A DNA stretch of 23,378 bases from Myxococcales bacterium (GTDB taxonomy: Bacteria > Myxococcota_A > UBA9042 > JABWCM01). A program made the position numbers and the translations under genes. Below are positions 6,577-20,780 of this stretch, one piece after another. The DNA is taken from contig JABWCM010000086.1 of NCBI GenBank assembly GCA_013360285.1, forward strand, positions 1-23,378. Reading direction: 5' to 3'. Positions within the stretch are counted from its first letter, which is position 1. Every line of letters starts with the position of its first letter. The notes beneath the pieces were generated by a model. That model searched no databases, was not told the origin of the DNA, and was given only the letters and a program-made list of their open reading frames with translations.

Positions 6577-7221
6577 TTAGTAAAACTTAATACCGCACCC
6601 AAGTGCCTTGGTTGTCGCCGGATCAATAGTTTTTCCACCAACCAGCGCCAACATTGCATCCCTCAGGTAGGATTTTCTTACGTCCGTGGGTTTGTTTGCG
6701 TTGTCGTCTACGGCTCCGTAATAAACAAGCTTCCAGTCCTTGTCGAACAGAAAAATCTCCGGTGTACGACTTGCACCGAACGCTTTTGCAAGCTTAGAGC
6801 CTTCGTCTACTACGTAGGGAAACTGAAAATCTGCTGCCTTGGCTCGTTCCGCCATTTTTTCCAAACGGTCGTCGGCGTATTTTGCGGGGTCGTTGGGATT
6901 CACAGCGATCGTATGAATTCCTTTGTCTTTAAACTCCCGTGCTATCTCTGCGATCCGGCCTTCCCAAGCCTGCGCCCACGGACAATGATTGCAGGTAAAA
7001 ACCACAAGACTGCCAACTGAACCTTTTATGTCATCCAGGGAAACAGCGTCACCAACGGCAGCTTTCATTTTTTCTGTCCGAAGTGGGGCCGATGCACCGA
7101 TAGTCAGTGCCGCGGGTTTGTCTTCGTCCGCACTGGAGTGCGTAACAAAGGATGTCAACGTTAACAACAACACCACCAACACAGAAAGAATCAAGTGTTT
7201 TTCAACAATCATTATATTCAC
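6577..7221 (-). CDS. Membrane-anchored or secreted thioredoxin-fold thiol:disulfide oxidoreductase (TlpA/ResA/redoxin-like), CxxC = CNHC
   Basis: The 214-aa protein has an N-terminal hydrophobic segment, LILSVLVVLLLTLTSFVTHSSA. It carries the motif VVFTCNHCPWAQAW and has the overall beta-alpha-beta redoxin layout. Confidence 0.75.
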   Translation of the reverse strand: MNIMIVEKHLILSVLVVLLLTLTSFVTHSSADEDKPAALTIGASAPLRTEKMKAAVGDAVSLDDIKGSVGSLVVFTCNHCPWAQAWEGRIAEIAREFKDKGIHTIAVNPNDPAKYADDRLEKMAERAKAADFQFPYVVDEGSKLAKAFGASRTPEIFLFDKDWKLVYYGAVDDNANKPTDVRKSYLRDAMLALVGGKTIDPATTKALGCGIKFY

Positions 7222-7242: not shown

Positions 7243-7854
7243 TTACTTGAACACGCTGGTCCGAATAAGATCCTGAAATTGGGTACTGGACAATTTTCCC
7301 TCACTCATGCCAAGTAATCGACCGTTGCCGTCGAAAACCAGAGTCGTAGGAAGCAATCCAGACCAGCGGGGGCTGATCCCTTCAGCGAAATTCTGGTCAT
7401 CTTCGCAATTTACGTACGCTGGCCCATGGTAACCCAGATTATGCAATAATGCCGCTGCTTTATCCCAATGTTCGTCAAAGTCCATCGACACAAATATCAA
7501 CGCGATTTGTTTTTTCTCGAACTCCGACGTCTGGGCAATCAACTCCGGGAGTTCTTCGACACATGGCTCGCAATATATCGACCACAGGTTCACTGCCACG
7601 GCGGTCGCTTTCATATCAACAATAATATTCAGCAGTTGCGACGCCGTGACCGGAACAGGGTGACTTTTTTCGAAATGATACGCAACAACCTGGGTGGGTT
7701 GTTCGATAGCGGAGTCAATCGGTGCGCATTGCGCTGTTCCAATCAAGAAAACCAAGGAGACCCATAATGAAGCAGCCCTCAGAATCACAAAGTCCTCATG
7801 TAACGCGCCAACAAACACCTTTCTTATCCTCACTGAAGACGGCTCAGAAATCAA
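7243..7854 (-). CDS. Second TlpA-like thioredoxin-fold protein, CxxC = CEPC
   Basis: It carries the motif VNLWSIYCEPCVEELPEL. The N-terminal signal-like stretch is ASLWVSLVFLIGTAQCAP. The annotated start is TTG at 7854, and a GTG at the VILRAAS... position is a plausible alternative start. Confidence 0.7.
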   Translation of the reverse strand: MISEPSSVRIRKVFVGALHEDFVILRAASLWVSLVFLIGTAQCAPIDSAIEQPTQVVAYHFEKSHPVPVTASQLLNIIVDMKATAVAVNLWSIYCEPCVEELPELIAQTSEFEKKQIALIFVSMDFDEHWDKAAALLHNLGYHGPAYVNCEDDQNFAEGISPRWSGLLPTTLVFDGNGRLLGMSEGKLSSTQFQDLIRTSVFK

Positions 7855-8167
7855 CCGATTGTGCCTCTGATTCCACTTTTGTTATCACGCGATCAGGCAC
7901 CCAAATAAACCGGTCTCCCGTCCCAACGGAGCAAAGTACACGCACTGGTTGTCTCAATTATGGGCTCTGCTATATGTGTGCGTTTATCGCGATTCAGAAC
8001 AATATCTCACAAAGTGAAGTCTCTCAAACGTCAAGATCTACCAGAATCCGCATTAAGGAAGCCAAGTCGGATGTAGATATGCGATCATTTTGTCACATTT
8101 TATCCGGGCGTGAACTGAGTTACAGTAACCAGGTTTTTTTGAGATACGTGCGGAATCGGACACTCAT

Positions 8168-8173
8168 GAGAGG
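8168..8173 (+). promoter_or_regulatory. Shine-Dalgarno (GAGAGG) for the yqiJ-like gene
   Basis: GAGAGG lies 5 nt upstream of the ATG at 8179. Confidence 0.45.
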
Positions 8174-8178
8174 ACCCC

Positions 8179-8976
8179 ATGAACGAACTGCTGGAAACGG
8201 CCATCGCATACCCCACGGTCGTTTTTACAATTTTGCTAGGAGTGCTGCTCGTCTATTGGACACTGGTTATTATTGGTGCATTAAGCATAGAAACGTTTCA
8301 TGTCGATACCGGCGTCGATGGAACGATCGACGGGGCGGCGTCTGCCAGTGGGGACGCCGCAGCCGAGTCATTCGGCGCCGAGTCGACGGGAACAGCGGAG
8401 ATCGGCGATCAGGGAGACGGTGGAGACACTCATGGTGGCACAACGAACCTTTTGGAAGCATTAGGACTAACCGGCGTTCCGATTACTGTATCGCTTAGCT
8501 TTCTGGTTCTTTGGTCGTGGCTACTGACGATTGTCGCCATCGACTGGACACGGAATTTACTTGTCGACACTACCCTGCGCCCTTGGGCTCACACTGGGAT
8601 AGCTGTTGGCTCGATTGCAGCCTCGATTTGGCTTACTGGCCTATGCATAAGGCCCCTGCGACGCGTCTTTCAAAAACATCCGACCACCGAGAGTCGAAGT
8701 TTGGTGGGCGCGGTGTGCCAAATTTCGACGCTGCGTGTGGACTCACGTTTTGGGCAAGCCTCGGTGGAGTTAACCGGTGCAAATCTGTTACTCCCCGTTC
8801 GTTGTCTGGAGCAAAACCAACTCACGAAAGGGTCCGAGGCGCTGATCATTGAATTTGACGAAACAAAAGAGGTCTTCCTGGTTGTACCAATGGACCACGT
8901 GCTGACGTCGGAGAAGCGTTCGACATCCAGTAACTTGCCATCAAACCAACGCTCCCAGGCGAACAAACAGAGTTAG
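8179..8976 (+). CDS. yqiJ: YqiJ/NfeD-like inner-membrane protein (flotillin-associated; three TM segments, acidic Gly/Asp/Ala-rich loop, C-terminal OB-fold-like soluble domain)
   Basis: Three TM segments: TM1 YPTVVFTILLGVLLVYWTLVIIGAL, TM2 VPITVSLSFLVLWSWLLTIVAI and TM3 GIAVGSIAASIWLTGLCI. A low-complexity DG/A-rich acidic linker separates TM1 from TM2. The beta-rich C-terminus (…ISTLRVDSRFGQASVELTGANLLLPVRCL…EALIIEFDETKEVFLVVPMD) is typical of NfeD/YqiJ partners of SPFH proteins. It sits immediately upstream of a flotillin gene, as in the E. coli yqiJK and B. subtilis yuaF-floT arrangements. Confidence 0.65.
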   Translation: MNELLETAIAYPTVVFTILLGVLLVYWTLVIIGALSIETFHVDTGVDGTIDGAASASGDAAAESFGAESTGTAEIGDQGDGGDTHGGTTNLLEALGLTGVPITVSLSFLVLWSWLLTIVAIDWTRNLLVDTTLRPWAHTGIAVGSIAASIWLTGLCIRPLRRVFQKHPTTESRSLVGAVCQISTLRVDSRFGQASVELTGANLLLPVRCLEQNQLTKGSEALIIEFDETKEVFLVVPMDHVLTSEKRSTSSNLPSNQRSQANKQS

Positions 8977-8978
8977 TA

Positions 8979-9010
8979 GAACATGTGGTGAGGTAACTTA
9001 ACACATGTTC
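8979..9010. repeat. Perfect 9-bp inverted repeat (GAACATGTG ... CACATGTTC) with a 14-nt loop, sitting between the yqiJ-like stop codon and the flotillin start
   Basis: 8979-8987 gaacatgtg is the reverse complement of 9002-9010 cacatgttc. It begins 3 nt after the TAG stop at 8974-8976. No U-tract follows it, so it is not a classical intrinsic terminator. Confidence 0.5.
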
Positions 9011-9070
9011 AGCGCAAAGAGGACAGTTTCTGTCAGGTATGAGCCTAAAATACGTTAATTTTCGCGACCG

Positions 9071-11182
9071 ATGGCTACCAAAAAAGGAGAAAAATTCGTC
9101 ATGTCACTTTATGCCGTATTAGTAACAGTTGGGGCAATTGTCATTTTGGTCCTGGGTATGGCCGGCCTATTAATGAAATTTTACAGAAAAGTGGACCAAG
9201 GAAAGGCATTGATTGTCAACAATCTTAAAGCCGATCCGGACGTAGTTTTCACAGGCGCCGTTGTTTACCCAATTATCCATCGTGCTGAAATTATGGATAT
9301 TTCCGTAAAAACGATCGAGATCGATCGACGCGGAAAAGAAGGACTTATATGCAAGGACAATATTCGAGCAGACATCAAGGTAACGTTCTTTGTTCGCGTC
9401 AACAAAACCCGTGAAGACGTGCTCAAGGTCGCGCAATCGATCGGCTGTGTTCGGGCGTCCGACCACAAAACTCTGGAGGATCTGTTTGCGGCAAAATTTT
9501 CCGAGGCGTTAAAAACCGTCGGAAAACGAATGGAATTTGAAAGCCTTTACGAGGAACGAGATCGTTTCCGAGACGAGATTATCGACATCATCGGCCGCGA
9601 TCTGAACGGTTATATCCTCGAAGACGCTGCGATCGACTATCTTGAACAAACGCCACTGGCGAACCTTGATAGCAATAACATTTTGGATGCTCAGGGAATA
9701 CGTAAAATTACCGAGCTGACATCGATTCAGCATGTTCGAACCAACGAGTATGCCAATAACGAAAAGAAATTGATAAAAAAACAGGATGTCGAAGCAACAG
9801 AAGCGATATTGGAGTTAGAGCGCCAACAGGCCGACGCTGAATCAAAACAAAAAAGGGAAATTGCAACCGTTAGGGCACGCGAAGATGCGGAAGTGCTTCG
9901 CGTACAAGCAGAGGAGCGTTTAAAAGCCGAGTCCGCGCGAATCAAGACCACGGAGGACTTATCAGTTCAAGAGGAGAACAAAAATCGACAAGTCGAAGTG
10001 GCGAAGAAAAACCGTGAACGTGTAGTGGCCGTTGAAGGTGAGCGTGTAGAAAGGGATCGTGTAATCGAACAAATCGGCAGGGAACGCGAAACAGAATTGC
10101 TGCGGATCGCCAAAGAAAAGGCGTTGGAAGTTGAACGAAAGGCAATTCAAGACGTGATCCGGGAGCGCATCGCGGTTGAAAAAACCGTCGCAGAAGAGGA
10201 GGAACGAATCAAGGACTTGCGGTTGATTGCAGAAGCAAAACGCAACAAAGAAGCCGTGGTGCTGGCCGCAGAAGCCGAAGCCCAAGAGTTGCTTGTCAAA
10301 GGCATCAAAGCAGCCGAGGCGGCCGAACAGGCATCCAAATACAAAGCCAAAGAACGGCTGGTCCTTGCCGACGCCGACTTGGAAGCCACCGACAAAGCAG
10401 CCAAAGCGAAAATCCGGCTTGCCGAAGGCATTCAGGCAGAAGAAGCTGCAGCCGGCCTAGCCAGAGTTCGTGTTAAAGAAGCGGATGCGATAGCGCTCGA
10501 AAAGGTCGGATTTGCAGAAGCCCGTGTCCTAATCGAAAAGGCGCAGGCAGAAGCGCAGGGAAACGAAGCGTCCGGACTGGCTCGAGCCCGGGTATTGGAG
10601 GCGGAGGCCGCCGCAAACGAAAAAGCGGGACTCGCATCGGCTCGAGTCCGACGCGAACAAGGAACAGCAGAAGCACAAGCCATCTTGGAAAAGGCCAACA
10701 GCATGCGCGCTCTTGACGAAGCAACCCGAGGGCATGAAGAATTCCGCCTGCGTGTGGAAATGGAGAAGTCGCTGGGACTGGAGGAAATCCATGCCAAACG
10801 ACAAGTTGCCGAAGCCCAGGCACGCATTTTAGGCGACGCCTTCAAAACCGCAAAGATTGATATTGTCGGGGGCGACGCGGCGTTTATCGATCGAGTCGTA
10901 AACGCGGTCTCGTATGGGAAGTCACTCGACGGGGCGGTGAAGCACAGCAACACGTTATCAACTCTTGGGGCGGACTATCTTAACGGAAAGTCACGGCTGC
11001 TGGATGATGTCAAGAAACTCATAGCAACATCCGGACTTTCTGCGACCGACCTGCAGGCATTAACAGTAACAGCATTCCTTACAAAAATGATGCGAAATGC
11101 AGACGGGGGAGCCAAAACCCATCTTCAGAATCTTTTGGCAAAAGCAACAGAACTTGGCCTAGCCGACACCAATTTAAGTTAA
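9071..11182 (+). CDS. yqiK: Flotillin / SPFH (band 7) family protein, YqiK/FloT-like, with a long Glu/Ala/Lys-rich coiled-coil region
   Basis: N-terminal membrane hairpin MSLYAVLVTVGAIVILVLGMAGLLMKFYRK. The SPFH core includes ...IVNNLKADPDVVFTGAVVYPIIHRAEIMDISVKTIEIDRRGKEGLICKDNIRADIKVTFFVRV.... About 350 aa of EA-rich repeats follow (ARARVLEAEAAANEKAGLASARV...), then a C-terminal helical domain. The real start is more likely the ATG at 9101 (MSLYAV...), which has AAGGAG 11 nt upstream, than the first ATG at 9071. Confidence 0.85.
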   Translation: MATKKGEKFVMSLYAVLVTVGAIVILVLGMAGLLMKFYRKVDQGKALIVNNLKADPDVVFTGAVVYPIIHRAEIMDISVKTIEIDRRGKEGLICKDNIRADIKVTFFVRVNKTREDVLKVAQSIGCVRASDHKTLEDLFAAKFSEALKTVGKRMEFESLYEERDRFRDEIIDIIGRDLNGYILEDAAIDYLEQTPLANLDSNNILDAQGIRKITELTSIQHVRTNEYANNEKKLIKKQDVEATEAILELERQQADAESKQKREIATVRAREDAEVLRVQAEERLKAESARIKTTEDLSVQEENKNRQVEVAKKNRERVVAVEGERVERDRVIEQIGRERETELLRIAKEKALEVERKAIQDVIRERIAVEKTVAEEEERIKDLRLIAEAKRNKEAVVLAAEAEAQELLVKGIKAAEAAEQASKYKAKERLVLADADLEATDKAAKAKIRLAEGIQAEEAAAGLARVRVKEADAIALEKVGFAEARVLIEKAQAEAQGNEASGLARARVLEAEAAANEKAGLASARVRREQGTAEAQAILEKANSMRALDEATRGHEEFRLRVEMEKSLGLEEIHAKRQVAEAQARILGDAFKTAKIDIVGGDAAFIDRVVNAVSYGKSLDGAVKHSNTLSTLGADYLNGKSRLLDDVKKLIATSGLSATDLQALTVTAFLTKMMRNADGGAKTHLQNLLAKATELGLADTNLS
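9084..9089 (+). promoter_or_regulatory. Shine-Dalgarno (AAGGAG) serving the internal ATG at 9101 of the flotillin ORF
   Basis: The sequence is aaaaaaggagaaaaattcgtcATG, and the second Met starts directly at the TM hairpin. Confidence 0.45.
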
Positions 11183-11237
11183 TGAACTGAAGTACAAAAT
11201 TAGACTATCTCGTTCAGTGTGAAAACGCGACCACGTC

Positions 11238-14200
11238 GTGGTTGATGCGCGGACACTGGGACTTGTATCCAGCAGGTCGCCGCAAAAGGTCAATACAATG
11301 ACAGCCGAAGAATCCGAACCACGGAAATCAGCAATCGATACCGCAGTAGACAAAGGAACTTATGAGGTTCTGCGTGACAGACTGGTCAAATCGTCTGCCG
11401 ATCTTGCTAACCGTGCGGACCGCCTGAATGTGAGCCGAGTGGAACACTTCGGCACAAGTCGGTTTGAAGTCATTAGCAGTGATCGAATTCGTACCATCAA
11501 CAACTGTGTCCCGCGCGATATTGTCTCAGTGGGAAATCATCTGATATTTGGATACAATGTCTTTATTGGTCTTCGTAAACAAACCGTCATAAGCGATGTT
11601 CTATCGGTTCACCGATTCCAGGACGAAGAAGGAAAATTCTCGTTTGAGCCGCTCACATCGGGCCATGAGCCGGATTATTTGGTTGATCCTCGGTTTGTGA
11701 GGGATTTCGACGAACTGTACCAGTATTATAAGGATGCTAAATTAGTACAACTAAGGGTTAGAGACCAAAAGTTATTGGCCGTATTTCAAATAGGGCAATC
11801 AATCAAGGACATTCGGGTATTACGTTGGAGTATTGCAAACGATTTTCGCTTAAATTACATCGACAACCGCGGCGAGCGTGACCACATATTTCCTCCAACT
11901 CACGATTTTGAATGGACCGCAACGACCAGGTCCGATCATCGTCACGGGTCCCACCCTCACGTGTCGATCCTGGACGAAGTCTTCGTAGAAACCATTGGTG
12001 GTGACCTTACCGTTAAAATCGAAGACAATACCGCAACTGGGCTAGGCGTATACTCAGAACCCGTGGACGATCCCCGACAGAGTTTAGACGACGCCGAGTT
12101 CTTGTACGCACGGGTGGGACCGCTTGTCCTATTGAAAATAAAACCGTATCGCGAGCTTTCTTATCGCTATCTCGTATTCAATACTCGAACTCGCACGGTA
12201 TCTCGGATCGACGCAATTGGACAATCCTGCGTACGACTGCCGGAAGACCACGGAATTATTTTTCCTGGAGGCTATTATCTCCAAAATGGCGAATTGAAAT
12301 TATTTGATCTCGATATTTCAGGAATGATCTTCAAACGTATGGTTCGTTCACCCAACGGAGAAGATGTTCTATACGTATTTCATGACAAGGACGGCGGACG
12401 ACGCATTCTCCTGCCTTACAATTTGATTCGCAAAGAGGTAGTCGCTGCCGTCCCCTGCCATGGATTTACACTGTTTCCGGACGGCAAAATGGTCCTGTTT
12501 CGTGCCACCACCGATGAACCCACACGCGTTCATCCGATGCAAGTTTGGCGAACTCCGTTTGTGTCTGACGAAATCGCCGCAATACAGCCAGTAGGAACCT
12601 CGTTTCTTGCAAAAATCGGCAACGCAGAACTGGTACGGGGCATTTCCGACGCGTTGTCGATCTGCAGGATGGTGGAGGACAGCCAACCTAGTCTGCGAAA
12701 ATACGAGGATTTGATTCAAGCAACCCGCCGTGTGTCGGACAATTATCTTTGGTACGGCGACGCAGACGCACATGACCTGAGATCGCCACTTCACGAAATT
12801 CAGTCTGTAGCTGACCTTATTGCTGATGAATTTGAAAAGGTTCAGGTGCAACGCCAAGCGACCCGGCAGGCATTGAATGGTGTCCAAGCAGATCAAGCCA
12901 GGGTTCTCAACGAGCTACGTCCCCAGGATTTTCGGGCTATTGAGTCGTTTGTGGAGACGTTGGCAACCATCCGCAACCTGCGCGGCCGCATCGTCGGCCT
13001 CCGTGATCTACGATATATCGACTTACCTGATGTCGACACACTGGAAGCTGCCAACACGGCGGCGTTTGCGATGGTCAGTAAAGAGACGGTCACCTTTTTG
13101 CTAAAGGAGGAGGCTTTAACACCTTATCTAAGTCGAATTTCAGAGTTGACCAACAGCGCAGAGAAATCGCAGACCGTAGTCGACCTTGCGACACAGCAAG
13201 AGGCTGTAGACAAAATCAGCCAGGGACTTGAACTTTTGTCGGAAATCGTCGCGTCTCTGAAGGTCGATGATGCGACAAAACGAACCAAGATTTTGGAAAA
13301 GACGTCGGAAGTCTTCTCCCAACTCAACAGAACACGTGCTATCTGCCAAACAAGGCGAAAAGAACTGCGATCAACGGAAGCAAAAGCCGAATTCAGTGCG
13401 GATTTCCGCCTTTATGCTCAAAGTGTACAAAGTGCCATTGGACTAGCCGATACACCGGAAAAATGCGACGACCAACTTGCAGCGTTGCTGCTGCAACTTG
13501 AAGAACTGGAGAGCCGCTACAGTGAGTTTGATGAGTTTCTGACCGAACTTGCGGTCAAACGCGAGGACGTCTACGAGGTACTTTCTGCAAGAAAACAGAC
13601 GCTTGTGGACGAAAGACAAAGAAGGTCCCAAAACGTCGTGGTCGCCGTAGACCGAATTCTTTCGGGTATCGCGCGGCGTAGCGCAACATTTCAATCGCCC
13701 GATGAACTGAACACCTATTTTGCGGCCGACCCAATGGTCGCAAAGGTTTACGAGTTAAGCGACAAATTGCGCACACTTGGCGATGGACTACGAGCTGACG
13801 AAATCATCAGCCGCCTCAAGGTGACAAAGGAGGAATCTGTACGCGCGCTGCGTGATCGATCCGATCTGTTCGAGGACGGCGCAAAAGTGATTCGACTCGG
13901 ACGTCATCGATTTTCTGTCAATACATCTCTTGTTGACCTTACTCTAATTCCGCGCGATGACAAACTTGTACTTCACCTTACTGGTACAGATTATTTCGAA
14001 GTGATCGACGAGCCCCAGTGGACCGAAACCAAGGAATTCTGGGCTCAACAAATCGTGTCCGAAACCGACCAGGTTTATCGAAGTGAATATTTGGCGTCAT
14101 GCATATTGGCAGAAGCAGAAAGTGAACAAAATGGCGTATCCGTCCGCGACCTCATTGAGGCGGCGCGGTTTTTTGACTCGCTATCAGCACTGGTCAACAA

Positions 14201-16850
14201 AACCGCCGCCGAGCGTTACGACGAAGGATACGAGCGAGGAGTCCACGACCATGATGCAGCGCTGATTCTTGCCAAAATAGTACCGATGTACTTCGGCGCA
14301 GGCTTACTTCGTTATCCCGCCACAGCGAGAGCCATCGGCACTTTGTTTTGGGCACGGTGCGACAATACAACTCAAAAATCCAACTGGGAAAGGCGAGCGA
14401 AAAACCTGTTGCGATTACGCGAAACCTTTGCCCACAGCAATGCCATAGACATATTTGTGGAGGAGTTGTCGGATGCGGTTCTCTCGTTTTTCTCCGCGAA
14501 TGAAATTAAGATAAATAGTGATATATCTCACTTAGCATCCAGATATTTGTTGGAAGAGGTGGGACAATCACCCGTACGCTTTGTAGTGAGCCCCGAGGCA
14601 ATTCACCTTCGTGATGCGTTGGCCAAAAAGCTCAACAGCCAGTCGGTGTTTCGTCAGCTCACCGATGATTTGGCAGGACTCTCTGGTCACCTACGACCTG
14701 CATATGAACTAGCCACAGCGTGGGTCCGCAGCTTTGTTGAACAAAGCAACGATCCAGCACTTTCAGACTATGCGCACCTTTGCGAAGAAACAGCAGTGTT
14801 GTTGTTAACGGAACCGTCTCTGCCAAGAATGGCATTTACCACAACTACCCCGACAGTTGTGGATGTTTCCGAACTTCTTGGTCAGCACCCTCGCATAATC
14901 AATCGAACCATGAGATTACGTTTGGACGAGTTTGTTTCTCGGCTTACGGTCTTTCGTAAACATCGAGCACCATCATTTAGACATTATGTCAACTCAAGGA
15001 ATCGTTTTCTTCAAACGCAACGTGCAAGATTGCGTCTGGACGAATTGAAGCCGAAAGTCATGAGCACGTTCGTGCGAAATCGACTCATCAACGATGTTTA
15101 CCTGCCGCTGATAGGAGATAATTTAGCAAAACAAATCGGAACCGTTGGCGAAACTGGTAGAACGGACAGAATGGGAATGTTGCTGCTGATTTCACCGCCT
15201 GGGTACGGAAAAACGACACTTATGGAATATGTAGCCAACCGCTTGGGGCTCATTTTCGTAAAGGTCAATGGACCCTCGTTGGGGCACGGCGTAACGTCGA
15301 TCGATCCCGACGAAGCACCCAACATGACGGCACGTCAAGAGGTAGACAAAGTCAATTTTGCATTGGAGTTGGGTAACAACGTGATGCTGTATATCGATGA
15401 CATACAGCACACCAACACGGAACTCCTTCAGAAGTTCATCTCGCTTTGTGACGCCCAGAGGAAAATCGAGGGAGTGTGGCGCGGGCAAGCCAGAACCTAC
15501 GATCTTCGAGGAAAACGATTTTGTGTGTGTATGGCTGGAAATCCATATACGGAATCGGGACAGCGGTTTCAACTACCCGACATGCTCGCAAACCGGGCCG
15601 ACACATATAATCTCGGTGAAGTGTTGTCGGGTCGTGATGAACTGTTTCGGTTAAGTTACGTTGAAAACAGCCTCACTTCCAACCCGGTGTTGGCACCCCT
15701 TGTGACACGTGATCCGCAGGATATTTCTACATTTGTAGCTATTGCACATGGTCAGAATCGGTCACCGAGTGAACTGAAGTACAGTTATAGTGCGGCCGAG
15801 CAGGAAGAAATCGTGCTCGTCCTCAGGAAATTGTTTCGGATCATTGAGGTCGTATTAGCGGTAAACCAGCAGTACATCTTGTCTGCATCCCAAGAAGACG
15901 CGTATCGAACGGAACCACCGTTTAAGTTGCAAGGTAGTTATCGAAACATGACCAAACTGGCATCAAAAGTAGTCGCGGTTATGAACCCCTCCGAACTGGA
16001 GTCGCTGATTGATGATCATTATGCCTCTGAGTCCCAGACTCTTACGACTGGAGCGGAACACAACCTTCTTAAATTAGCCGAAATACGTGGGAAATTAACG
16101 GATGAACAAAACAAACGATGGGCAGAAATCAAAAAAAGTTTTGGACGTAATCAAGTGATGGGTGGGCGCGATGCTGATCCTGTTACTCGAGTAACCCAGG
16201 TACTCGGTAGCTTGGGCGAAAGACTGGACGCAATCGCCTTGGCGGTGGATTCCGCGGTCCGCAGCGAAACAGCAAACATTTCGCCGGCGGAAAAGATCAA
16301 CCAAGGTCTTACGGATATGGGTATCCATCTTGCTGCAATCGCGAAAGCCATTACCAACGTTGAACACAACGTGGCCGCACAGCAACAATCTTCTGTGACA
16401 CTCCAATCAGCACTGCAGCCAGTGGAGAAAAACCTAACAGGAATACAGCGTGCTCTTCAGACTCTGGTCTCTGTTTCCCAAAGCGGAGCGGACAGATCAC
16501 TCACAACCGCTTCAACGATACAACCACTGATTGACCAAATGACACAACTCATAGCAACACTCGCGAAAGCTCGATTCGGCGTGGAAATTGTCAACATGCC
16601 GCCTCCGGCTGTCCATGACCTGGTCTCCAAACAAATACAAATCATTGAGCAATTGATGATTCCAGTTCTGCGCTCACTGGGTCATAACCTAAAGGGGTCG
16701 AAAGCCATTTGGGACAAACTTGGCGAGCTAATTGAAAAACTCCGTGAAACTGACATGCGGGATATCGCCAGCGCTGCCCGTACAGTAGAAATGGTCTCCC
16801 TTTTTGGAAATGAACCCAACGAAAATGACCGTAATACAAACAATGGTTAG
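11238..16850 (+). CDS. Giant (about 1,850-aa) soluble multidomain AAA+ ATPase of unknown function. It has an N-terminal beta-rich region, a long helical/coiled-coil middle, a MoxR/dynein-like AAA+ core near residue 1300-1500 and a Gln-rich helical C-terminus. It resembles the large proteins generically annotated as DNA-repair-ATPase-like.
   Basis: This is a single uninterrupted ORF. The track start is GTG at 11238, and the first ATG is at 11298 (MTAEESEP...). AAA+ motifs: Walker A LLLISPPGYGKTTLMEY (nt about 15201-15218), Walker B VMLYIDDIQH (about 15385-15410, DD rather than DE), sensor-1 CVCMAGNPYT and an arginine in MLANRADTY. I saw no hydrophobic TM segments. It starts 56-116 nt after the flotillin stop on the same strand. 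Confidence 0.8.
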   Translation: MVDARTLGLVSSRSPQKVNTMTAEESEPRKSAIDTAVDKGTYEVLRDRLVKSSADLANRADRLNVSRVEHFGTSRFEVISSDRIRTINNCVPRDIVSVGNHLIFGYNVFIGLRKQTVISDVLSVHRFQDEEGKFSFEPLTSGHEPDYLVDPRFVRDFDELYQYYKDAKLVQLRVRDQKLLAVFQIGQSIKDIRVLRWSIANDFRLNYIDNRGERDHIFPPTHDFEWTATTRSDHRHGSHPHVSILDEVFVETIGGDLTVKIEDNTATGLGVYSEPVDDPRQSLDDAEFLYARVGPLVLLKIKPYRELSYRYLVFNTRTRTVSRIDAIGQSCVRLPEDHGIIFPGGYYLQNGELKLFDLDISGMIFKRMVRSPNGEDVLYVFHDKDGGRRILLPYNLIRKEVVAAVPCHGFTLFPDGKMVLFRATTDEPTRVHPMQVWRTPFVSDEIAAIQPVGTSFLAKIGNAELVRGISDALSICRMVEDSQPSLRKYEDLIQATRRVSDNYLWYGDADAHDLRSPLHEIQSVADLIADEFEKVQVQRQATRQALNGVQADQARVLNELRPQDFRAIESFVETLATIRNLRGRIVGLRDLRYIDLPDVDTLEAANTAAFAMVSKETVTFLLKEEALTPYLSRISELTNSAEKSQTVVDLATQQEAVDKISQGLELLSEIVASLKVDDATKRTKILEKTSEVFSQLNRTRAICQTRRKELRSTEAKAEFSADFRLYAQSVQSAIGLADTPEKCDDQLAALLLQLEELESRYSEFDEFLTELAVKREDVYEVLSARKQTLVDERQRRSQNVVVAVDRILSGIARRSATFQSPDELNTYFAADPMVAKVYELSDKLRTLGDGLRADEIISRLKVTKEESVRALRDRSDLFEDGAKVIRLGRHRFSVNTSLVDLTLIPRDDKLVLHLTGTDYFEVIDEPQWTETKEFWAQQIVSETDQVYRSEYLASCILAEAESEQNGVSVRDLIEAARFFDSLSALVNKTAAERYDEGYERGVHDHDAALILAKIVPMYFGAGLLRYPATARAIGTLFWARCDNTTQKSNWERRAKNLLRLRETFAHSNAIDIFVEELSDAVLSFFSANEIKINSDISHLASRYLLEEVGQSPVRFVVSPEAIHLRDALAKKLNSQSVFRQLTDDLAGLSGHLRPAYELATAWVRSFVEQSNDPALSDYAHLCEETAVLLLTEPSLPRMAFTTTTPTVVDVSELLGQHPRIINRTMRLRLDEFVSRLTVFRKHRAPSFRHYVNSRNRFLQTQRARLRLDELKPKVMSTFVRNRLINDVYLPLIGDNLAKQIGTVGETGRTDRMGMLLLISPPGYGKTTLMEYVANRLGLIFVKVNGPSLGHGVTSIDPDEAPNMTARQEVDKVNFALELGNNVMLYIDDIQHTNTELLQKFISLCDAQRKIEGVWRGQARTYDLRGKRFCVCMAGNPYTESGQRFQLPDMLANRADTYNLGEVLSGRDELFRLSYVENSLTSNPVLAPLVTRDPQDISTFVAIAHGQNRSPSELKYSYSAAEQEEIVLVLRKLFRIIEVVLAVNQQYILSASQEDAYRTEPPFKLQGSYRNMTKLASKVVAVMNPSELESLIDDHYASESQTLTTGAEHNLLKLAEIRGKLTDEQNKRWAEIKKSFGRNQVMGGRDADPVTRVTQVLGSLGERLDAIALAVDSAVRSETANISPAEKINQGLTDMGIHLAAIAKAITNVEHNVAAQQQSSVTLQSALQPVEKNLTGIQRALQTLVSVSQSGADRSLTTASTIQPLIDQMTQLIATLAKARFGVEIVNMPPPAVHDLVSKQIQIIEQLMIPVLRSLGHNLKGSKAIWDKLGELIEKLRETDMRDIASAARTVEMVSLFGNEPNENDRNTNNG

Positions 16851-16955
16851 TTCAAATTGGGCAAAGCAACCAGTAGAACCAGACCGCACGGTTTCCGAGA
16901 TCCGTGAAGCAAACGATAGCGGTTTTACCACGATATGAGATCCGGTTAGGCAATC

Positions 16956-18068
16956 ATGATGGATCTGAACACTCTGAGAATTTGCACAAGAATAGCTTTT
17001 CGATCCTGGATGGACTCTTTTTCTCAAGGTCCGTGTAACTATTTTGTTGCAAATTCAGCATTATCGAAAAAAGTCGGGTGCGGGTCGTGGGCGAAGATGT
17101 TGCGAATTGGCCAGGGAAAAGTTGAGGAATGTCGAGAGATTGCCGTAGTGTTTTTTGCGAACGAGGCAACCCAAATTCTCCGTCACCAGCGTGCCAACTT
17201 ATTTTTGGGCAAGCCAGCGCCGTATGTGACCCATGCCTGGCTTTGTTTGGTAGTCGCCTTGCTGTCGTTCGCGTTGAATTCAGCATGTAAACATCAATCG
17301 TCACCAGTATCCCCGCCGTCCCCGACGACGACCACCGCCCATCGGGCGCCGCTGTCTGTCGTCCCTGAGTTCACATCGAAACCAGCGACGCCTCAACAGC
17401 AAGACGACGAGGCACCAATCAATCCCATCTCGGTAAATCTGAATAACACGAACCTAGGCAGCACATCGACATCGTCGGATTTGGTCTGGTTATCTCATCC
17501 AACGCTTCCGTTTTCAATCACGGCAACCGAAATTTCGGTTCAGCAATTCAAATCTTGCGTCATGAACGGAAAATGCATTCCCCAGAATCGTAAACCATGC
17601 AATTTTGGCGTAGAAGGCAAAGAAAATCATCCCATGAATTGCATAAATTACTATGGAGCGGAGGAGTTTTGTCACTTTGCCGGGGGGAGAATCTGCACTG
17701 AAACGGAGTGGCTCGCGGCCTGCTCCGGCAGCAATGGACGCGCCTTCCCCTACGGCAACGAATTCGACATTTCTGTATGTAATCACCAAAGCGCCACATC
17801 GCCGACATCGGCAAAACCAAAAGACACCGCACCCGTGAAGTCATTCGGTCAGTGTGAGGGCGGCCTGCCGGGTCTCTTCGACATGGCCGGCAACGTTACT
17901 GAATGGGTAAATGGTTGCAAGGACGACTATTGCAAATTTCGCGGGGGCGGGTTTGTAAACAACGATCCAGTGGAAAGATTTACAGGTTGCAGCGGAGTGT
18001 GTTCGGGAAACAAAAAAGGATTTCTTTCTCCCACTATCGGCATTCGCTGTTGCCGAGATGCGGATTAA
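16956..18068 (+). CDS. Exported FGE/SUMF1-domain protein (formylglycine-generating-enzyme family fold). It has an N-terminal segment, then a TM/signal helix, then a Pro/Ser/Thr-rich linker before the domain.
   Basis: The C-terminal domain carries hallmark FGE-sulfatase motifs: ...ENHPMNCINYYGAEEFCHFAGGRICTETEWLAACSG...RAFPYGNEF...FDMAGNVTEWVNG...RGGGF... followed by Cys-rich ...CSGVCSG...IRCCRD. The hydrophobic helix is AWLCLVVALLSFALNSAC (a possible lipobox if translation starts at the GTG at 17226 or the ATG at 17098). The low-complexity linker is SPVSPPSPTTTTAHRAPLSVVPEFTSKPATPQQQDDEAP. Confidence 0.7.
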   Translation: MMDLNTLRICTRIAFRSWMDSFSQGPCNYFVANSALSKKVGCGSWAKMLRIGQGKVEECREIAVVFFANEATQILRHQRANLFLGKPAPYVTHAWLCLVVALLSFALNSACKHQSSPVSPPSPTTTTAHRAPLSVVPEFTSKPATPQQQDDEAPINPISVNLNNTNLGSTSTSSDLVWLSHPTLPFSITATEISVQQFKSCVMNGKCIPQNRKPCNFGVEGKENHPMNCINYYGAEEFCHFAGGRICTETEWLAACSGSNGRAFPYGNEFDISVCNHQSATSPTSAKPKDTAPVKSFGQCEGGLPGLFDMAGNVTEWVNGCKDDYCKFRGGGFVNNDPVERFTGCSGVCSGNKKGFLSPTIGIRCCRDAD

Positions 18069-18086
18069 CACCGGTAAATCAGTAAC

Positions 18087-19121
18087 TTAAAGCCGCTGCG
18101 CTCCAGCCGCTGTCACATGTGAGAACAATGCCTCCAGGGAATTATCCCGAGCAACGACGCGATAAATGAGAGCGCCGGAAGATAAAACTACCGTCGCAAG
18201 ATCTCGATACGCCTGATCCGGCGATTCGGTTAGTAATTCAAGTACGTGGTCGCCTGCAACCTTCAGTTCTCTAACATGTGGCAACCCAATGAGAGCTTTT
18301 GCCAGTTTTCGAGCGTTGTCGACCTCAAGCTCAATCCGATGAGGATATCGGTCACGTAACTGACTTAGTAACGAGCCGATGTGGCCCATTCCGAGCAGCC
18401 GCCCGTGTGCCAAAATTCCCACTCGATCGGTTAGGCTCTCAATTTCGTGAAGAACGTGCGAGGTTATCAACACAGTACGCCCATGATTGCCCAACCATTC
18501 AATATGTTGTCGTAATCGCTGACGATTCGGCGGATCGACACCGAGAAAGGGTTCGTCCAAAAGGACAACTCCTGCATCGGCAACCAGTGCCAGACCCAGC
18601 TTGAGCCGCTGGCGCATTCCTCGGGACCAGGTTTCTACCTTACGAGCACCGTCGGCCGTCAGACCAACGAGTTCCAGCGCACTAGCAGCATTGGTTTTTG
18701 CCTCAGACACGCTGCACCCTCTCGCCAAAAACGCAATCTCTAGGTTTTTCAGCCCAGAAACATTTTCATAGAAAGCCTCAACCGCCGGAACCAGCGTGAT
18801 CTTACTTCGCACGGCCGCGCTAAAAAACGGTTCCTCACCGAAAACCGTCGTTTTTCCCTCACGTGGAAGAATTAACCCAGTTAGAACCCTCATGAGAGTC
18901 GTTTTTCCGCTGCCATTTGGACCGACAAGCCCAGTAATTCCTGGGCCAAGGCCCAACGTCACTCGACTCAACCCAACAACTTCACCGTAAAACACGGTAA
19001 CATCCCTTAAAAGGGCGACTGAATCGATCGGACTATCATCCGATGCACCCTTCAAGTTCGTCACGGAATCATCTCCTTTTTTGCGCGAGCGTGGATCCCC
19101 ATATAACCAAGCAGGCCCCAC
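18087..19121 (-). CDS. ABC transporter ATP-binding protein with a C-terminal accessory domain (the distal gene of the four-gene ABC cluster)
   Basis: Motifs present: Walker A GPNGSGKTT, signature WSRGMRQR, Walker B VVLLDEPF, H-loop TSHVL. The annotated ATG overlaps the upstream permease gene by 61 nt. A downstream GTG (about VTNLKG.. or VALLRDVTVFYGE) may be the true start. Confidence 0.8.
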   Translation of the reverse strand: MGPAWLYGDPRSRKKGDDSVTNLKGASDDSPIDSVALLRDVTVFYGEVVGLSRVTLGLGPGITGLVGPNGSGKTTLMRVLTGLILPREGKTTVFGEEPFFSAAVRSKITLVPAVEAFYENVSGLKNLEIAFLARGCSVSEAKTNAASALELVGLTADGARKVETWSRGMRQRLKLGLALVADAGVVLLDEPFLGVDPPNRQRLRQHIEWLGNHGRTVLITSHVLHEIESLTDRVGILAHGRLLGMGHIGSLLSQLRDRYPHRIELEVDNARKLAKALIGLPHVRELKVAGDHVLELLTESPDQAYRDLATVVLSSGALIYRVVARDNSLEALFSHVTAAGAQRL

Positions 19122-19852
19122 GCCAACAAGACTCCAAAGCCCAGCAACCCAATCATCGCGCGGTCCTTACCGTCATTGAACAAGAACGCAGTCAAAAATG
19201 TGGACGAGCGCACGGGACCGACTGGAACTGCGTCGGTTCCGAACATGCCCTGAGCCAACCCGTCGGGTACTGTCAAAAGTATAATTGCCAAGACGACGGC
19301 CCAACGTGTTTGTTTGGTGACGGCACTACAACCAACGGTCATTCCCGCCAACCCCGTGGCGGTTGCACCGGCGACAAGGACGGCTTTCGCAATCATCAGT
19401 CCGGATTGGGCAAAGGTCACATGTACGAGAATGCCCGCTTGCAGCAAAGCGACCACCGCGGCAGGTACGCACAACAGCAACGCAACCGGCGCCCACACCG
19501 ACGTTAACTTACCAATTGTATAGTGCCACGGTAGCACGGGGCGAGTCGCGTATAGAAACAATACATCCTCATGACGATCCCTCGCTATGCTTGGAGTCCC
19601 AAGTCCCAGCGCCAAAAGAACGACCACGCGCGTCTGGACCTCCAGAAAACGATAAACGGGATCCCAGTCCAACGTTCGTGAGAAATTCTTATCTAACCAG
19701 GCTTGCCCCACCAACACCGTGGTAATAACCAAAACCGGCAAGATACTGAACAATGCCAATATCTTCACCAGCCGGAGCTGCCATGCAAGTCGCAGTTCAC
19801 GGCGAGCGATGGTGCTCACGACATGCCTTGACGTCGGCGCCTTATGTACCAT
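19061..19852 (-). CDS. ABC-2 type transporter permease
   Basis: The 263-aa protein has six or more hydrophobic helices. It overlaps the upstream ATPase gene by 11 nt. Confidence 0.65.
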   Translation of the reverse strand: MVHKAPTSRHVVSTIARRELRLAWQLRLVKILALFSILPVLVITTVLVGQAWLDKNFSRTLDWDPVYRFLEVQTRVVVLLALGLGTPSIARDRHEDVLFLYATRPVLPWHYTIGKLTSVWAPVALLLCVPAAVVALLQAGILVHVTFAQSGLMIAKAVLVAGATATGLAGMTVGCSAVTKQTRWAVVLAIILLTVPDGLAQGMFGTDAVPVGPVRSSTFLTAFLFNDGKDRAMIGLLGFGVLLAWGLLGYMGIHARAKKEMIP

Positions 19853-20780
19853 GGTGTTCGGTACCCTCCATCATGTGAACAACCGCGTCCTCAAGGCTTG
19901 CCAACTCCGGCCCCAGCGAACGAACCTCGGCGTGACGTTCTGCTACTACACGCCAAAAGGCGCGCCAATGGCTGTCGTCATTGGCTACAAACATCACTCC
20001 GTTGGGACGAACCTTGGTGACTACGACACCGTACGACGTTAACAACGCAGCAAATGTCGCATCTATACCATATCCTTCGGCAGATATCGGACCTCCCGTA
20101 CTACCAGTGAGTTGTTGTTTCGTACCGTGATATGCCACCGTCCCCTCGCTGAGCAGCAGCATCTCATCGCAAACAACTTCCGCATCCGCCATGATATGGG
20201 TGCTCATCAAAATACGACGCCCTTGATCACGCAAATCGCGAATTAATCCGAGTAACTGAACACGACCAGGCGGATCCAAACCAATCGTAGGTTCATCTAA
20301 AATAAGTATCTCTGGATCCTGCACCAGACTCATCGCCAGTTTACACCTCTGCTTCATGCCGGTGGAAAATCCCGAAGTGGACCGGTATCGCTCCTCACCT
20401 ACAGCCAGCGCATCCAACGCACGATGGGCTCTACGCAGGGCATCTGAACGTCCGAGACCGCTCAGCATGCCGGCAAAGGCAACCGCGTCGACGCCCGAAC
20501 CTCCCGGGAAAATTCCTGCTTGTTCGGCCATCACACCAGCGCGAGCGCGCACTTCCATTGCCATTTCCGGCAATCGGTAACCTAACACGCGCACAACCCC
20601 CGATTCAGCCCGCAATACACCTAACAACGTTCCGATCAGGGTCGACTTGCCGGAGCCATTAGCACCAACCAAACCAACCGCTTTACCCCTCATCGCCGCG
20701 GAAATGTCCACCAAAACCGGCCGTCCACTGCGGCGAACGGATACATTCTCCAGTTCGATCCATGCCTCCGCCATCAACAC
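19842..20780 (-). CDS. ABC transporter ATP-binding protein
   Basis: Motifs present: Walker A GANGSGKST, signature FSTGMKQR, Walker B ILILDEPT, H-loop STHIM. It overlaps the upstream permease gene by 7 nt. Confidence 0.85.
   Translation of the reverse strand: MLMAEAWIELENVSVRRSGRPVLVDISAAMRGKAVGLVGANGSGKSTLIGTLLGVLRAESGVVRVLGYRLPEMAMEVRARAGVMAEQAGIFPGGSGVDAVAFAGMLSGLGRSDALRRAHRALDALAVGEERYRSTSGFSTGMKQRCKLAMSLVQDPEILILDEPTIGLDPPGRVQLLGLIRDLRDQGRRILMSTHIMADAEVVCDEMLLLSEGTVAYHGTKQQLTGSTGGPISAEGYGIDATFAALLTSYGVVVTKVRPNGVMFVANDDSHWRAFWRVVAERHAEVRSLGPELASLEDAVVHMMEGTEHHGT

Follow-up and report, generated by a model that had tools for sequence, protein, structure and literature searches.

The giant AAA+ ATPase encoded in the window analysed here, by which is meant the whole 23,378-nucleotide stretch of Myxococcales DNA, is a typical member of the Pfam DUF3686 + DUF7902 + AAA family and belongs to a conserved three-gene membrane module, in which its gene is strictly linked to those of a YqiJ-like membrane protein and a flotillin. 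As judged from the sequences, the ATPase is the cytoplasmic subunit of this module, and it appears to be functional, with an active site that is complete except for an invariant Asp replacing the catalytic Glu. The linkage to a flotillin gene makes scaffold remodelling, and not DNA repair, the most likely function, and the proposal that the ATPase may remodel flotillin/PspA scaffolds at the membrane, hydrolysing slowly and working like a switch, is considered to have about an even chance of being correct. The coordinates of the features discussed below are collected in Table 1.

The longest open reading frame within the window occupies positions 11238..16850 (+), and translation from the ATG at 11298 yields a product identical to the database protein P0001, which is titled 'MAG: DNA repair ATPase [Myxococcales bacterium]'. 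The product matches PF12458 (DUF3686) with 688.3 bits against a Pfam cut-off of 25 (E 5e-207), with aa 35-483 aligned to positions 1-447 of the 448 in the profile; for DUF7902 (PF25472), at aa 605-689, the score is 94.4 bits (cut-off 26, E 5e-27). The earlier note on this DNA had likened the protein to 'DNA-repair-ATPase-like' or DUF-containing AAA proteins and had proposed a profile search for any DUF over the N-terminal region; the likeness has turned out to be clear family membership, and the N-terminal region is indeed covered by PF12458. Homologues of the ATPase number at least 7,290 and are spread over many phyla, including Myxococcota, Acidobacteriota, Actinomycetota, Gammaproteobacteria, Planctomycetota and others. 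Among the matches listed, nearly all are 50-58 % identical over ~86-100 % of the length, one is 81 % identical and one is identical, and the same precomputed Pfam set, colinear with the ATPase, is found in most of the 120 homologues listed. Domain order, length and all motifs, including DDIQH, are shared with other DUF3686/DUF7902/AAA proteins, the family motifs PPGYGKTT, hhhhDDIQH, AGNPY, LANRAD and QGSYRN all being present and invariant. The NCBI product name for the family is "DNA repair ATPase". The literature search returned no paper mentioning DUF3686 or PF12458 and no experimental literature on the family; nor did it return any in which 'DNA repair ATPase' occurs together with flotillin or SPFH, and the DUF3686 ATPase is not mentioned in SPFH reviews and surveys.

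The domain anatomy was derived from AlphaFold2 (AF2) models of the ATPase, to which DSSP and Foldseek were applied. In the models, a long helix (aa 21-51) precedes the beta-propeller and together with it forms the core of DUF3686. The propeller comprises about 28 strands, its Foldseek matches are beta-propeller proteins and it is probably seven-bladed, while its most conserved patch, which is His- and acidic-rich and consists of invariant or near-invariant columns, represents a candidate ligand- or partner-binding site. The long helical scaffold that follows includes the spectrin-like DUF7902, as well as two small beta subdomains (aa ~864-904 and ~1177-1208), the former of which is conserved and carries a GRHRFSVNT motif of invariant columns. 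The C-terminal tail is A/L/Q/S/T-rich and coiled-coil-like, with profile matches to designed antiparallel coiled coils only; it is absent or unalignable in many homologues, and is longer and lineage-specific here in comparison with actinobacterial and gammaproteobacterial DUF3686 members. The previously described beta-rich N-terminal region can now be recognized as the propeller, and the single AAA+ module was rightly placed far from the N-terminus (aa ~1250-1620 of 1850). Two other parts of that description required amendment: the stretch of ~800 aa regarded as helical is mainly so but holds the small beta subdomains, and the supposed Q/A/L-rich C-terminus of ~380 aa is confined to aa ~1621-1850, whereas aa ~1470-1620 are conserved lid and post-AAA helices of the AAA+ module.

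Table 1. Features of the three-gene module and of the ATPase
Feature	Position	Strand	Details
YqiJ/YuaF-like (NfeD-like) membrane protein, gene 1	8179..8976	+	265 aa, three TM-like segments
YqiK-type flotillin, gene 2	9071..11182	+	703 aa, one TM segment
Giant DUF3686-AAA+ ATPase, gene 3	11298..16850	+	1850 aa, soluble
Beta-propeller, core of DUF3686 (predicted)	11460..12557	+	aa ~55-420; AF2 model m974b3dc43655, pLDDT 87
Most conserved propeller patch	11856..11960	+	aa 187-221, YIDNRGERDHIFPPTHDFEW...GSHPH; alignment and conservation profile
Long helical scaffold (predicted)	12567..15047	+	aa ~424-1250; AF2 models
AAA+ module with lid and post-AAA helices	15048..16157	+	aa ~1251-1620
Walker A, GYGKTT	15201..15218	+	aa 1302-1307; invariant in 120/120 homologues
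Walker B, VMLYI-D1367-D1368 followed by invariant IQH	15381..15401	+	YIDDIQH from aa 1365
Beta-hairpin at pre-sensor-1 position (predicted)	15462..15503	+	aa 1389-1402; DSSP of AF2 model residues 690-703
Sensor-1 Asn1415	15540..15542	+	MAGNPY, from aa 1412; invariant in 120/120 homologues; end of core strand
Arg1433, candidate arginine finger	15594..15596	+	LANRAD; ANRADTY from aa 1431; invariant in 120/120 homologues
Arg1549, candidate sensor-2 arginine	15942..15944	+	in invariant QGSYRN; R in 119 representatives
Variable C-terminal helical tail	16158..16847	+	aa 1621-1850; conservation 0.09-0.31, pLDDT 30-70

Over the region of the AAA+ motifs, the AF2 pLDDT exceeds 90. VMLYID is modelled as a beta strand (aa 1362-1367) with D1367-D1368 at its end, at the Walker B position, and FCVCMAG as the next core strand, which ends in N1415, at the position of sensor 1; the beta-hairpin separates the Walker B helix from the sensor-1 strand. 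R1433 is found at a helix-to-strand junction, the usual place of an arginine finger, for which both alignment and model make it a candidate, while R1549 is a candidate sensor-2 arginine by virtue of its position in the lid. The GYGKTT motif, D1367, D1368, N1415 and R1433 do not vary among the 120 close homologues. In a more diverse set, composed of 150 representatives of 50 %-identity clusters, PPGYGKTT was found in 132, and the intact representatives all carry DD save one DN and one degenerate copy. Such retention, in every close homologue and nearly all intact representatives, is far beyond chance and no product of sequencing error, and the Asp-Asp Walker B is, on the alignments, a signature of the family and no local oddity. 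The motifs named in the earlier note (GYGKTT as Walker A, at aa 1302; YIDDIQH as a Walker B with Asp for Glu, at aa 1365; the Asn of MAGNPY as sensor 1; and the Arg of ANRADTY) are all upheld by their invariance or by their places in the model. The possibility of a wrong assignment was checked as well, and neither the alignment nor the AF2 model contains an alternative Walker B.

In an AF2-based structural comparison, the AAA+ fold appears nearest to the MoxR (CbbQ/NorQ), midasin and dynein modules. For the AAA_5, MoxR or dynein classification raised earlier, the fold is thus suggestive, and at the level of sequence no such model passed: AAA_5 scored 20.7 bits, under the Pfam cut-off of 22, and hhalign against E. 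coli RavA gave 6.8 %. The classical AAA model, PF00004, reached 27.6 bits against a cut-off of 21.2, over profile positions 1-68 of 131 only, which correspond to the Walker A half, and PDB sequence matches of the module were likewise confined to ~35-70 residues. When E. coli RuvB, FtsH, RavA and DnaA were compared with the module by hhalign, the P-loop region alone aligned, so the AAA+ clade is not assignable from sequence in this way. The predicted beta-hairpin before sensor 1 is shared with the MoxR remodellers CbbQ, NorQ and RavA and the related AAA modules of midasin and dynein, and the MoxR-type remodelling of partner complexes without proteolysis is a likely mode of action for the ATPase. 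The two differ in Walker B, which is DE in MoxR proteins and DD in the DUF3686 ATPase, in the ~1250-aa N-terminal extension of the latter, none being known in MoxR proteins, and in the VWA-domain partner of MoxR, which has no counterpart among the window neighbours or as a conserved fourth gene in 80 loci. Dynein and midasin contain six AAA modules, in contrast to the single module of the DUF3686 ATPase, and the classical AAA proteins p97, FtsH and Vps4 have DE and no insertion before sensor 1, whereas the ATPase has DD and, in the model, the hairpin.

The Asp-Asp pair itself has a parallel in E. coli DnaA, in which LLIDDIQFF contains the identical IDDIQ. However, hhalign between the two gave 2.7 %, with no detectable homology beyond the P-loop, and they are unlike in fold clade, in architecture and in context; convergence is the best reading of the DD that they have in common. 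In DnaA, a nucleotide switch, ATP hydrolysis is slow and is triggered by a partner. By analogy with this precedent, a role of DD in a slow or regulated switch is plausible for the DUF3686 ATPase, and the presence of Asp-Asp throughout the family suggests intrinsically slow, partner-triggered hydrolysis that would suit a switch or timer, not a fast processive unfoldase.

The genomic context, which falls beyond the coordinates given in the earlier note, is the main source of functional information. The product of gene 1 contains three hydrophobic segments followed by a C-terminal soluble beta-rich domain; its family profile aligned with E. coli YqiJ by hhalign at 85.8 % (E 5e-6), and Pfam YqiJ_N is matched by 3 of 25 family members, which gives moderate support to its designation as a YqiJ/YuaF-type protein. 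The product of gene 2 has the layout of a flotillin, with an N-terminal TM helix, an SPFH-like domain and a long E/A/K-rich coiled coil, and it matches E. coli YqiK both in BLASTP (E 7e-35, 28 % identity over 422 aa) and in hhalign (99.9 %). The Pfam Band_7/Flot models did not detect this flotillin, and neither protein had a match in Pfam/NCBIfam or in PDB sequence and profile searches, so that the identity of genes 1 and 2 is established by direct comparison with E. coli YqiJ and YqiK only. Wherever a related locus includes upstream DNA (75 loci), the flotillin gene lies directly upstream of the ATPase gene, with small intergenic gaps; the divergence of the two proteins is correlated across loci (r = 0.71). 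A YqiJ-like gene precedes the flotillin gene in most related loci, including some missed by tblastn. No fourth conserved gene emerged from 80 loci, and all-against-all clustering of the ORFs of 81 loci yielded, beyond the triad, only lineage-specific synteny and antisense shadow ORFs. The FGE-sulfatase gene at 16956-18068 was considered as a fourth member and dismissed, given that it is not conserved in the 80 loci and is missing from the closest relative, which is otherwise syntenic. An apparent flotillin-ATPase fusion in locus L023 was also discarded, a stop codon being present between 7952 and 7959. Promoter and terminator scans of positions 7600-18400 gave counts no higher than shuffled sequences and are thus uninformative on operon boundaries. 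The other neighbours in the window are ABC transporters and redoxins. Gene linkage of this kind shows a shared function and is neutral as to which partner is the substrate. In E. coli and many other bacteria, yqiJK is present without a DUF3686 ATPase, which indicates that flotillin scaffolds do not generally depend on this protein.

In 6 of the 80 related loci, all proteobacterial, the module is extended by DUF2170 and PspA genes, and on plasmid pQBR103 genes for PspA, a rhomboid protein and glutathionylspermidine synthase are followed by those for the SPFH protein and the ATPase. Neither PspA nor DUF2170 is encoded in the window, so the PspA link is not directly applicable to this locus, which represents the abbreviated three-gene form of the extended operon. 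The operon association is not new, since it was noted in passing in a comparative genomic study (Ravi et al. 2024; PMC11237479), in which a flotillin-YqiJ-linked 'beta-propeller + coiled-coil + AAA-ATPase' was described computationally and a role in membrane dynamics was proposed. Abbreviated operons without the dyad of CesT/Tir-like DUF2170 and PspA were also described (PMC11237479), and absence of the dyad is therefore no bar to membership. The features of that operon (PMC11237479) are found here, namely a flotillin, a YqiJ-type gene with three TM segments and an N-terminal helix (aa 21-51) with a propeller, and the locus is a typical member.

The following mechanism may be envisaged. On the cytoplasmic side of the inner membrane, the flotillin would oligomerize into an SPFH cage or cap, and the YqiJ-like protein would be its partner within the membrane. 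Docking of the ATPase on this scaffold would involve the N-terminal coiled coil, the beta-propeller and the long helical arm, while the AAA+ module would probably mediate its oligomerization, and a nucleotide-dependent conformational change could then build the flotillin scaffold, open it, take it apart or remodel it in some other way. Where the operon is extended, PspA/ESCRT-III-like polymers may be a further target of the ATPase under membrane stress. Its role would be analogous to that of Vps4 on ESCRT-III or of MoxR ATPases on their target complexes. The predicted topology, with no TM segment in the ATPase, one in the flotillin and three in the YqiJ-like protein, fits the scaffold-remodelling proposal. 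A more specific version, in which a single-module relative of MoxR, midasin and dynein grips flotillin cages, and PspA/ESCRT-III polymers at loci that have them, with a coat-like propeller and helical arm while the partner-gated DD site times their ATP-dependent opening or disassembly, is offered only tentatively. The combination of an AAA+ protein with an SPFH-family scaffold is known from FtsH with HflK/C, a coupling that for the present ATPase is drawn from gene linkage alone. Both FtsH/HflKC and Vps4/ESCRT-III differ from it in possessing a protease domain, a TM anchor or an MIT domain, none of which the ATPase has, and FtsH and Vps4 belong to the classical clade, outside which its fold appears to lie.

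In an alternative, the flotillin cage serves as a platform on which membrane proteins that are damaged or unassembled would be extracted, unfolded or held by the ATPase, as a protease-free analogue of FtsH-HflK/C whose propeller and helical arm recognize the clients. The same operon evidence would accommodate such client processing, the module is similar on its Walker A side to the classical AAA unfoldases p97, Rix7 and FtsH, a conserved GH.VTS loop occupies the pore-loop-1 position, and S. aureus FloA-NfeD is reported in the literature to stabilize unfolded proteins. It is nevertheless regarded as unlikely, given that a canonical aromatic-hydrophobic-Gly pore loop is missing, that the DD Walker B speaks against fast processive threading, that the fold appears nearest to MoxR and dynein modules and not to classical unfoldases, and that the module has no conserved gene for a protease or chaperone. 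Replacement of Glu by Asp could equally denote an ATP-binding scaffold that does not hydrolyse. The ATPase would then bind ATP, hardly hydrolyse it and coat or tether flotillin domains as a structural element, the nucleotide setting only its oligomeric state; the layout of propeller and helical arm recalls membrane-coat proteins. The invariant absence of the catalytic Glu and the very long helical region favour such a static role, as do the Foldseek matches of the N-terminal model to IFT-A, nucleoporin and clathrin heavy chain, all of which combine a propeller with a helical solenoid, although the TM-scores of these coat proteins are low (0.12-0.20) and mostly reflect the propeller. The sensor-1 Asn and the candidate arginine finger and sensor-2 Arg are all invariant, which would be unusual in a pure binder and renders the coat improbable.

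Two further readings place the ATPase outside scaffold biology. The triad could constitute an anti-phage or conflict system that senses membrane perturbation upon infection and answers it by protection or by abortive infection. The family is patchily distributed across phyla with identity still near 50 %, which suggests horizontal spread; copies occur on megaplasmids such as pQBR103, and PspA ('phage shock') is linked at some loci. On the other hand, five proteins, including the triad, had no matches among the PADLOC-DB 2.0 models, no copy was present in 50,697 phage records, and the 13 of 72,556 plasmid records with copies are mostly chromids or mislabelled chromosomes. The neighbours in the window are transporter and redoxin genes and not defence genes, and an effector domain (nuclease, TIR or pore toxin) was looked for in the module and none was found, all of which makes a defence function decidedly improbable. 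That the label of DNA repair ATPase is correct is hardly credible. It goes back to names that were passed on, in the Pfam description of PF12458 and as the NCBI product name, and finds an echo in weak local similarity to RuvB over 43 columns around Walker A only, but Pfam and NCBIfam reveal no DNA-binding, nuclease or helicase domain, neither the window nor the set of conserved neighbours contains a repair gene, the genes to which it is strictly linked encode membrane proteins, and the literature search returned no paper supporting the name.

Thousands of genes carry the database label 'DNA repair ATPase' without support, and the evidence points instead to membrane-scaffold dynamics. Bacterial flotillins form very stable SPFH cages, and the published phenotypes of their deletion are often weak. 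The strict linkage of a flotillin subfamily to a giant ATPase that looks functional offers a handle on flotillin function, and on the assembly and disassembly of the cage in particular, in a family of at least 7,290 members with ~50 % identity across phyla. The three-gene cassette and point mutants would make the scaffold-remodelling hypothesis directly testable, and the invariant Asp-Asp in an otherwise complete site may provide a natural case of an AAA+ protein turned into a slow, partner-gated switch. Should the more specific, tentative version of it be true, with the DD site timing the opening of flotillin cages, the ATPase would represent a previously unrecognized machine by which prokaryotes carry out the 'uncoating/recycling' of SPFH scaffolds at the membrane, and its activity would be the first known energy-consuming step in bacterial flotillin biology.

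The main finding concerns gene context, as the giant DUF3686-AAA+ ATPase is encoded alongside genes for a flotillin and a YqiJ-like protein that lie upstream on the same strand (Table). Neither the 703-aa nor the 265-aa upstream product gave a match in Pfam, NCBIfam or PDB sequence and profile searches, the former being missed by the Band_7 and Flot models of Pfam. The 703-aa protein, which contains one N-terminal TM helix, is identified by direct comparison as a YqiK-type flotillin (E. coli YqiK: BLASTP E 7e-35, 28% identity over 422 aa; hhalign 99.9%). The ATPase-linked flotillins share 47-67% identity among themselves across phyla, as against 28% to YqiK, and seem to form a distinct subfamily that current domain models miss. 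The 265-aa protein has three hydrophobic segments and is similar to YqiJ, which is NfeD-like and the partner of YqiK (hhalign 85.8%, E 5e-6), with 3 of 25 members of its family matching Pfam YqiJ_N.

Features of the window and of the encoded ATPase
Feature	Position	Strand	Description
Zinc-ribbon protein gene	3357-3887	+	176 aa; Zn_ribbon_TFIIB, E 1e-9
ABC-transporter genes	3912-6531	-	
Tandem thioredoxin-fold genes	6577-7221; 7243-7854	-	AhpC-TSA/Redoxin; Thioredoxin_8
YqiJ-like gene	8179-8976	+	265 aa
YqiK-type flotillin gene	9071-11182	+	703 aa; immediately 5' of ATPase gene
Longest ORF of the window	11238..16850	+	
ATPase gene	11298-16850	+	1850 aa; AAGG ~10 nt 5' of ATG
Propeller's most conserved stretch	aa 187-221 (11856-11960)		His- and acidic-rich
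DUF7902	aa 605-689		spectrin-like; Pfam
Small beta subdomain	aa 864-904 (13887-14009)		five-stranded; inside helical arm
AAA+ module	aa ~1251-1620		includes lid and post-AAA helices
FGE-sulfatase (formylglycine-generating-enzyme-like) gene	16956-18068	+	370 aa; one hydrophobic segment; 105 nt 3' of ATPase gene
ABC-transporter genes	18087-20780	-	

The three-gene linkage is strict. When the window neighbours were compared by tblastn with 80 fetched related loci, the flotillin gene immediately preceded the ATPase gene in all 75 that included upstream DNA, the other five being truncated where their contigs end. The YqiJ-like gene lies 5' of the flotillin gene in most of the 80, and copies missed by tblastn were recovered by profile comparison in locus L051 and in the megaplasmid pQBR103. 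Intergenic gaps in the related loci are mostly below 100 nt, and no fourth gene is conserved among the 80. The pairwise divergence of ATPase and flotillin is correlated (r = 0.71, 64 loci), as expected for a unit inherited together. The FGE-sulfatase-domain gene was rejected as a partner, being specific to this genome; since it is not conserved beside the module and is missing from the 81%-identical relative L084, where synteny is otherwise identical, it looks like a recent insertion.

This neighbourhood has been described before, in a comparative genomic study of the phage-shock system (mSystems 2024, PMC11237479), as a passing computational note. [quoted passage not shown] No experiment or structure was found in the literature on the operon, nor any mention of a DD Walker B, the DUF3686 name or a MoxR/dynein-like fold for its ATPase, and surveys of SPFH proteins do not mention the ATPase. 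PspA and DUF2170 genes are absent from the window; in six proteobacterial loci (four Gilliamella, one Lampropedia, one Lysobacteraceae MAG) the triad is preceded by DUF2170 (CesT/Tir-like YjfI family) and PspA/IM30 genes. In pQBR103 of Pseudomonas fluorescens SBW25 (NC_009444.1, 85112-97641), a run of PspA, rhomboid, DUF2491, DUF350, DUF1190 and glutathionylspermidine-synthase-family genes is closed by those for SPFH and 'DNA repair ATPase'. This run joins two operon types given separately in the 2024 study (PMC11237479), and does so in an experimentally tractable system. A rhomboid-family protease gene also lies just 3' of the ATPase gene in Xenorhabdus (L062, 13219-13785, +), and rhomboid may be a recurrent accessory partner of the module.

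Within the window, the module is flanked on both sides by ABC-transporter genes, one flank comprising two ABC-2 permease genes and one ABC ATPase gene, the other two ABC ATPase genes with an unannotated 263-aa ORF between them. The thioredoxin-fold pair just upstream, on the opposite strand, is arranged likewise in L084, and the zinc-ribbon protein also shows a weak match, below the model's cut-off, to the thaumarchaeal output domain TackOD1.

Family membership of the ATPase is established by Pfam profile search (DUF3686, PF12458, 'ATPase involved in DNA repair', E 5e-207; DUF7902, E 5e-27), bearing out the suggestion in the earlier note of a DNA-repair-ATPase-like, DUF-type protein. Weak partial Pfam matches include AAA, AAA_22, AAA_5 and RuvB_N, and NCBIfam gave nothing above its cut-offs. 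Homologues at E <= 1e-5 number at least 7,290; those listed share ~50-58% identity over ~86-100% of the length, except one at 81% and the identical P0001, from a Myxococcales MAG, and are mostly unnamed or called 'DNA repair ATPase', 'AAA family ATPase', 'MoxR-like ATPase' or hypothetical. With one genome scanned per species, 403 loci were recovered, distributed over Myxococcota, Acidobacteriota, Actinomycetota (Nonomuraea, Glycomyces, Dactylosporangium), Gammaproteobacteria (Gilliamella, Xenorhabdus, Wohlfahrtiimonas), Planctomycetota, Eremiobacterota and others. No paper naming DUF3686 or PF12458 was found. The window ATPase is an ordinary member of a large, already catalogued family whose operon context had been noticed, so that this locus represents no new kind; the initial observation is real and correctly described.

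The four motifs read initially from the sequence lie where they had been placed (GYGKTT aa 1302, YIDDIQH aa 1365, MAGNPY aa 1412, ANRADTY aa 1431). In an AlphaFold2 model of aa 700-1850 (pLDDT 84.9 overall, >90 across most of aa 700-1620), VMLYID forms a core strand ending in D1367-D1368 at the Walker B position, FCVCMAG forms the next, ending in N1415 at the sensor-1 position, and R1433 occupies a helix-to-strand junction where arginine fingers sit; no other hhhhD[DE] motif qualifies, and the original Walker B assignment holds. G1302-T1307, D1367, D1368, Q1370, H1371, N1415 and R1433 are invariant among 120 aligned homologues; the module also carries an invariant QGSYRN motif, whose R1549 is the candidate sensor-2 arginine. 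When the AAA module alone was searched against 1.84 billion cluster representatives (368 at E <= 1e-30), every intact sequence among the best 150 carried DDIQH, with two exceptions, one having DN and the other, P0266, being clearly degenerate. Asp-Asp, present in 120 of 120 homologues and in nearly all intact representatives, is therefore a family-defining trait maintained by selection. P0266 (1312 aa), a divergent representative, retains Walker A, whereas both Walker B (NG, in LYLNGIEH) and sensor 1 (MSAHS) are lost; it may be an inactivated paralogue pairing with an active copy.

The IDDIQ pentapeptide is shared with the Walker B of E. coli DnaA (ALLIDDIQFF), which hydrolyses ATP very slowly until its partner, Hda together with the beta clamp, triggers it, and which acts as a nucleotide switch. 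Profile comparison detected no homology to DnaA beyond the P-loop, and the shared DD would therefore be a convergent parallel. Slow or regulated, switch-like hydrolysis, as first proposed, is a reasonable reading by analogy, not proof. Beyond DD, the site is intact and invariant (Lys, first Asp, sensor-1 Asn, two Arg), which argues against a dead ATPase.

Sequence likeness to solved structures (p97, Rix7, NVL, RuvB, Rpt3) is confined to 35-70 residues round Walker A, and profile comparison gave 94.5% with E. coli RuvB over only 43 columns, 80% with FtsH over 39, 6.8% with RavA and 2.7% with DnaA. Foldseek matched the module fold to RuvB, NorQ/CbbQ, dynein, MCM and Rix7 at E ~1e-4, and in modelled shape it appears closest to the MoxR, midasin and dynein group; a beta-hairpin between the post-Walker B helix and the sensor-1 strand (aa 1389-1402) is typical of this larger assemblage. 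The ATPase is not filed as a MoxR protein, since the sequence models do not recognize it as one and a VWA partner is missing.

A second model (aa 1-720, pLDDT 87.2) comprises 20 disordered residues, a long helix (aa 21-51), ~28 beta strands (aa 55-420) and long helices thereafter. Its Foldseek matches are beta-propeller proteins (E 1e-6 to 1e-4, low TM-scores), both propeller-plus-solenoid (IFT-A subunits, nucleoporin, clathrin heavy chain) and plain (prolyl oligopeptidase, YncE), and the N-terminus is read as a beta-propeller, probably with seven blades, that leads into a helical arm; the likeness to coat proteins is no more than a lead. In appearance, the propeller's most conserved stretch (YIDNRGERDHIFPPTHDFEW...GSHPH) is closer to a pocket for ligand or metal binding or for catalysis than to a plain surface of a scaffold. 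Residues ~424-1250 are mostly helical bundles with two small beta subdomains, one containing the near-invariant GRHRFSVNT motif (aa ~868-876). The domain order outlined initially, beta-rich N-terminus, helical middle, AAA+, stands; the 380-aa C-terminus does not form one tail, its first ~150 residues being conserved and part of the ATPase domain. The last 230 residues are six low-confidence predicted helices, with conservation of 0.09-0.31 (~0.8 in the AAA core, 120-homologue alignment) and profile matches to designed antiparallel coiled coils only, and in many homologues the alignment ends near aa 1650. No TM segment is predicted, and the established topology is that of a soluble ATPase with membrane-anchored partners.

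About even chances are given to a mechanism in which the flotillin would form a cage or cap at the cytoplasmic membrane face, as in solved SPFH complexes, on which the ATPase would dock by its propeller and helical arm while oligomerizing through the AAA+ module. Slow, partner-gated ATP turnover would then open, disassemble or reset the flotillin scaffold and, where present, PspA polymers would also be acted on. That the ATPase is instead a client-extracting machine, with flotillin as its platform, is considered rather improbable, and a nearly non-hydrolysing structural coat is unlikely. A defence system appears somewhat less plausible still, given no PADLOC match, no phage copies and an ordinary neighbourhood, while the literal 'DNA repair' label, with no evidence at all in its favour, is hardly credible. 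The family is mislabelled, mechanistically intriguing and wholly uncharacterized, and it offers a concrete route into bacterial flotillin function.
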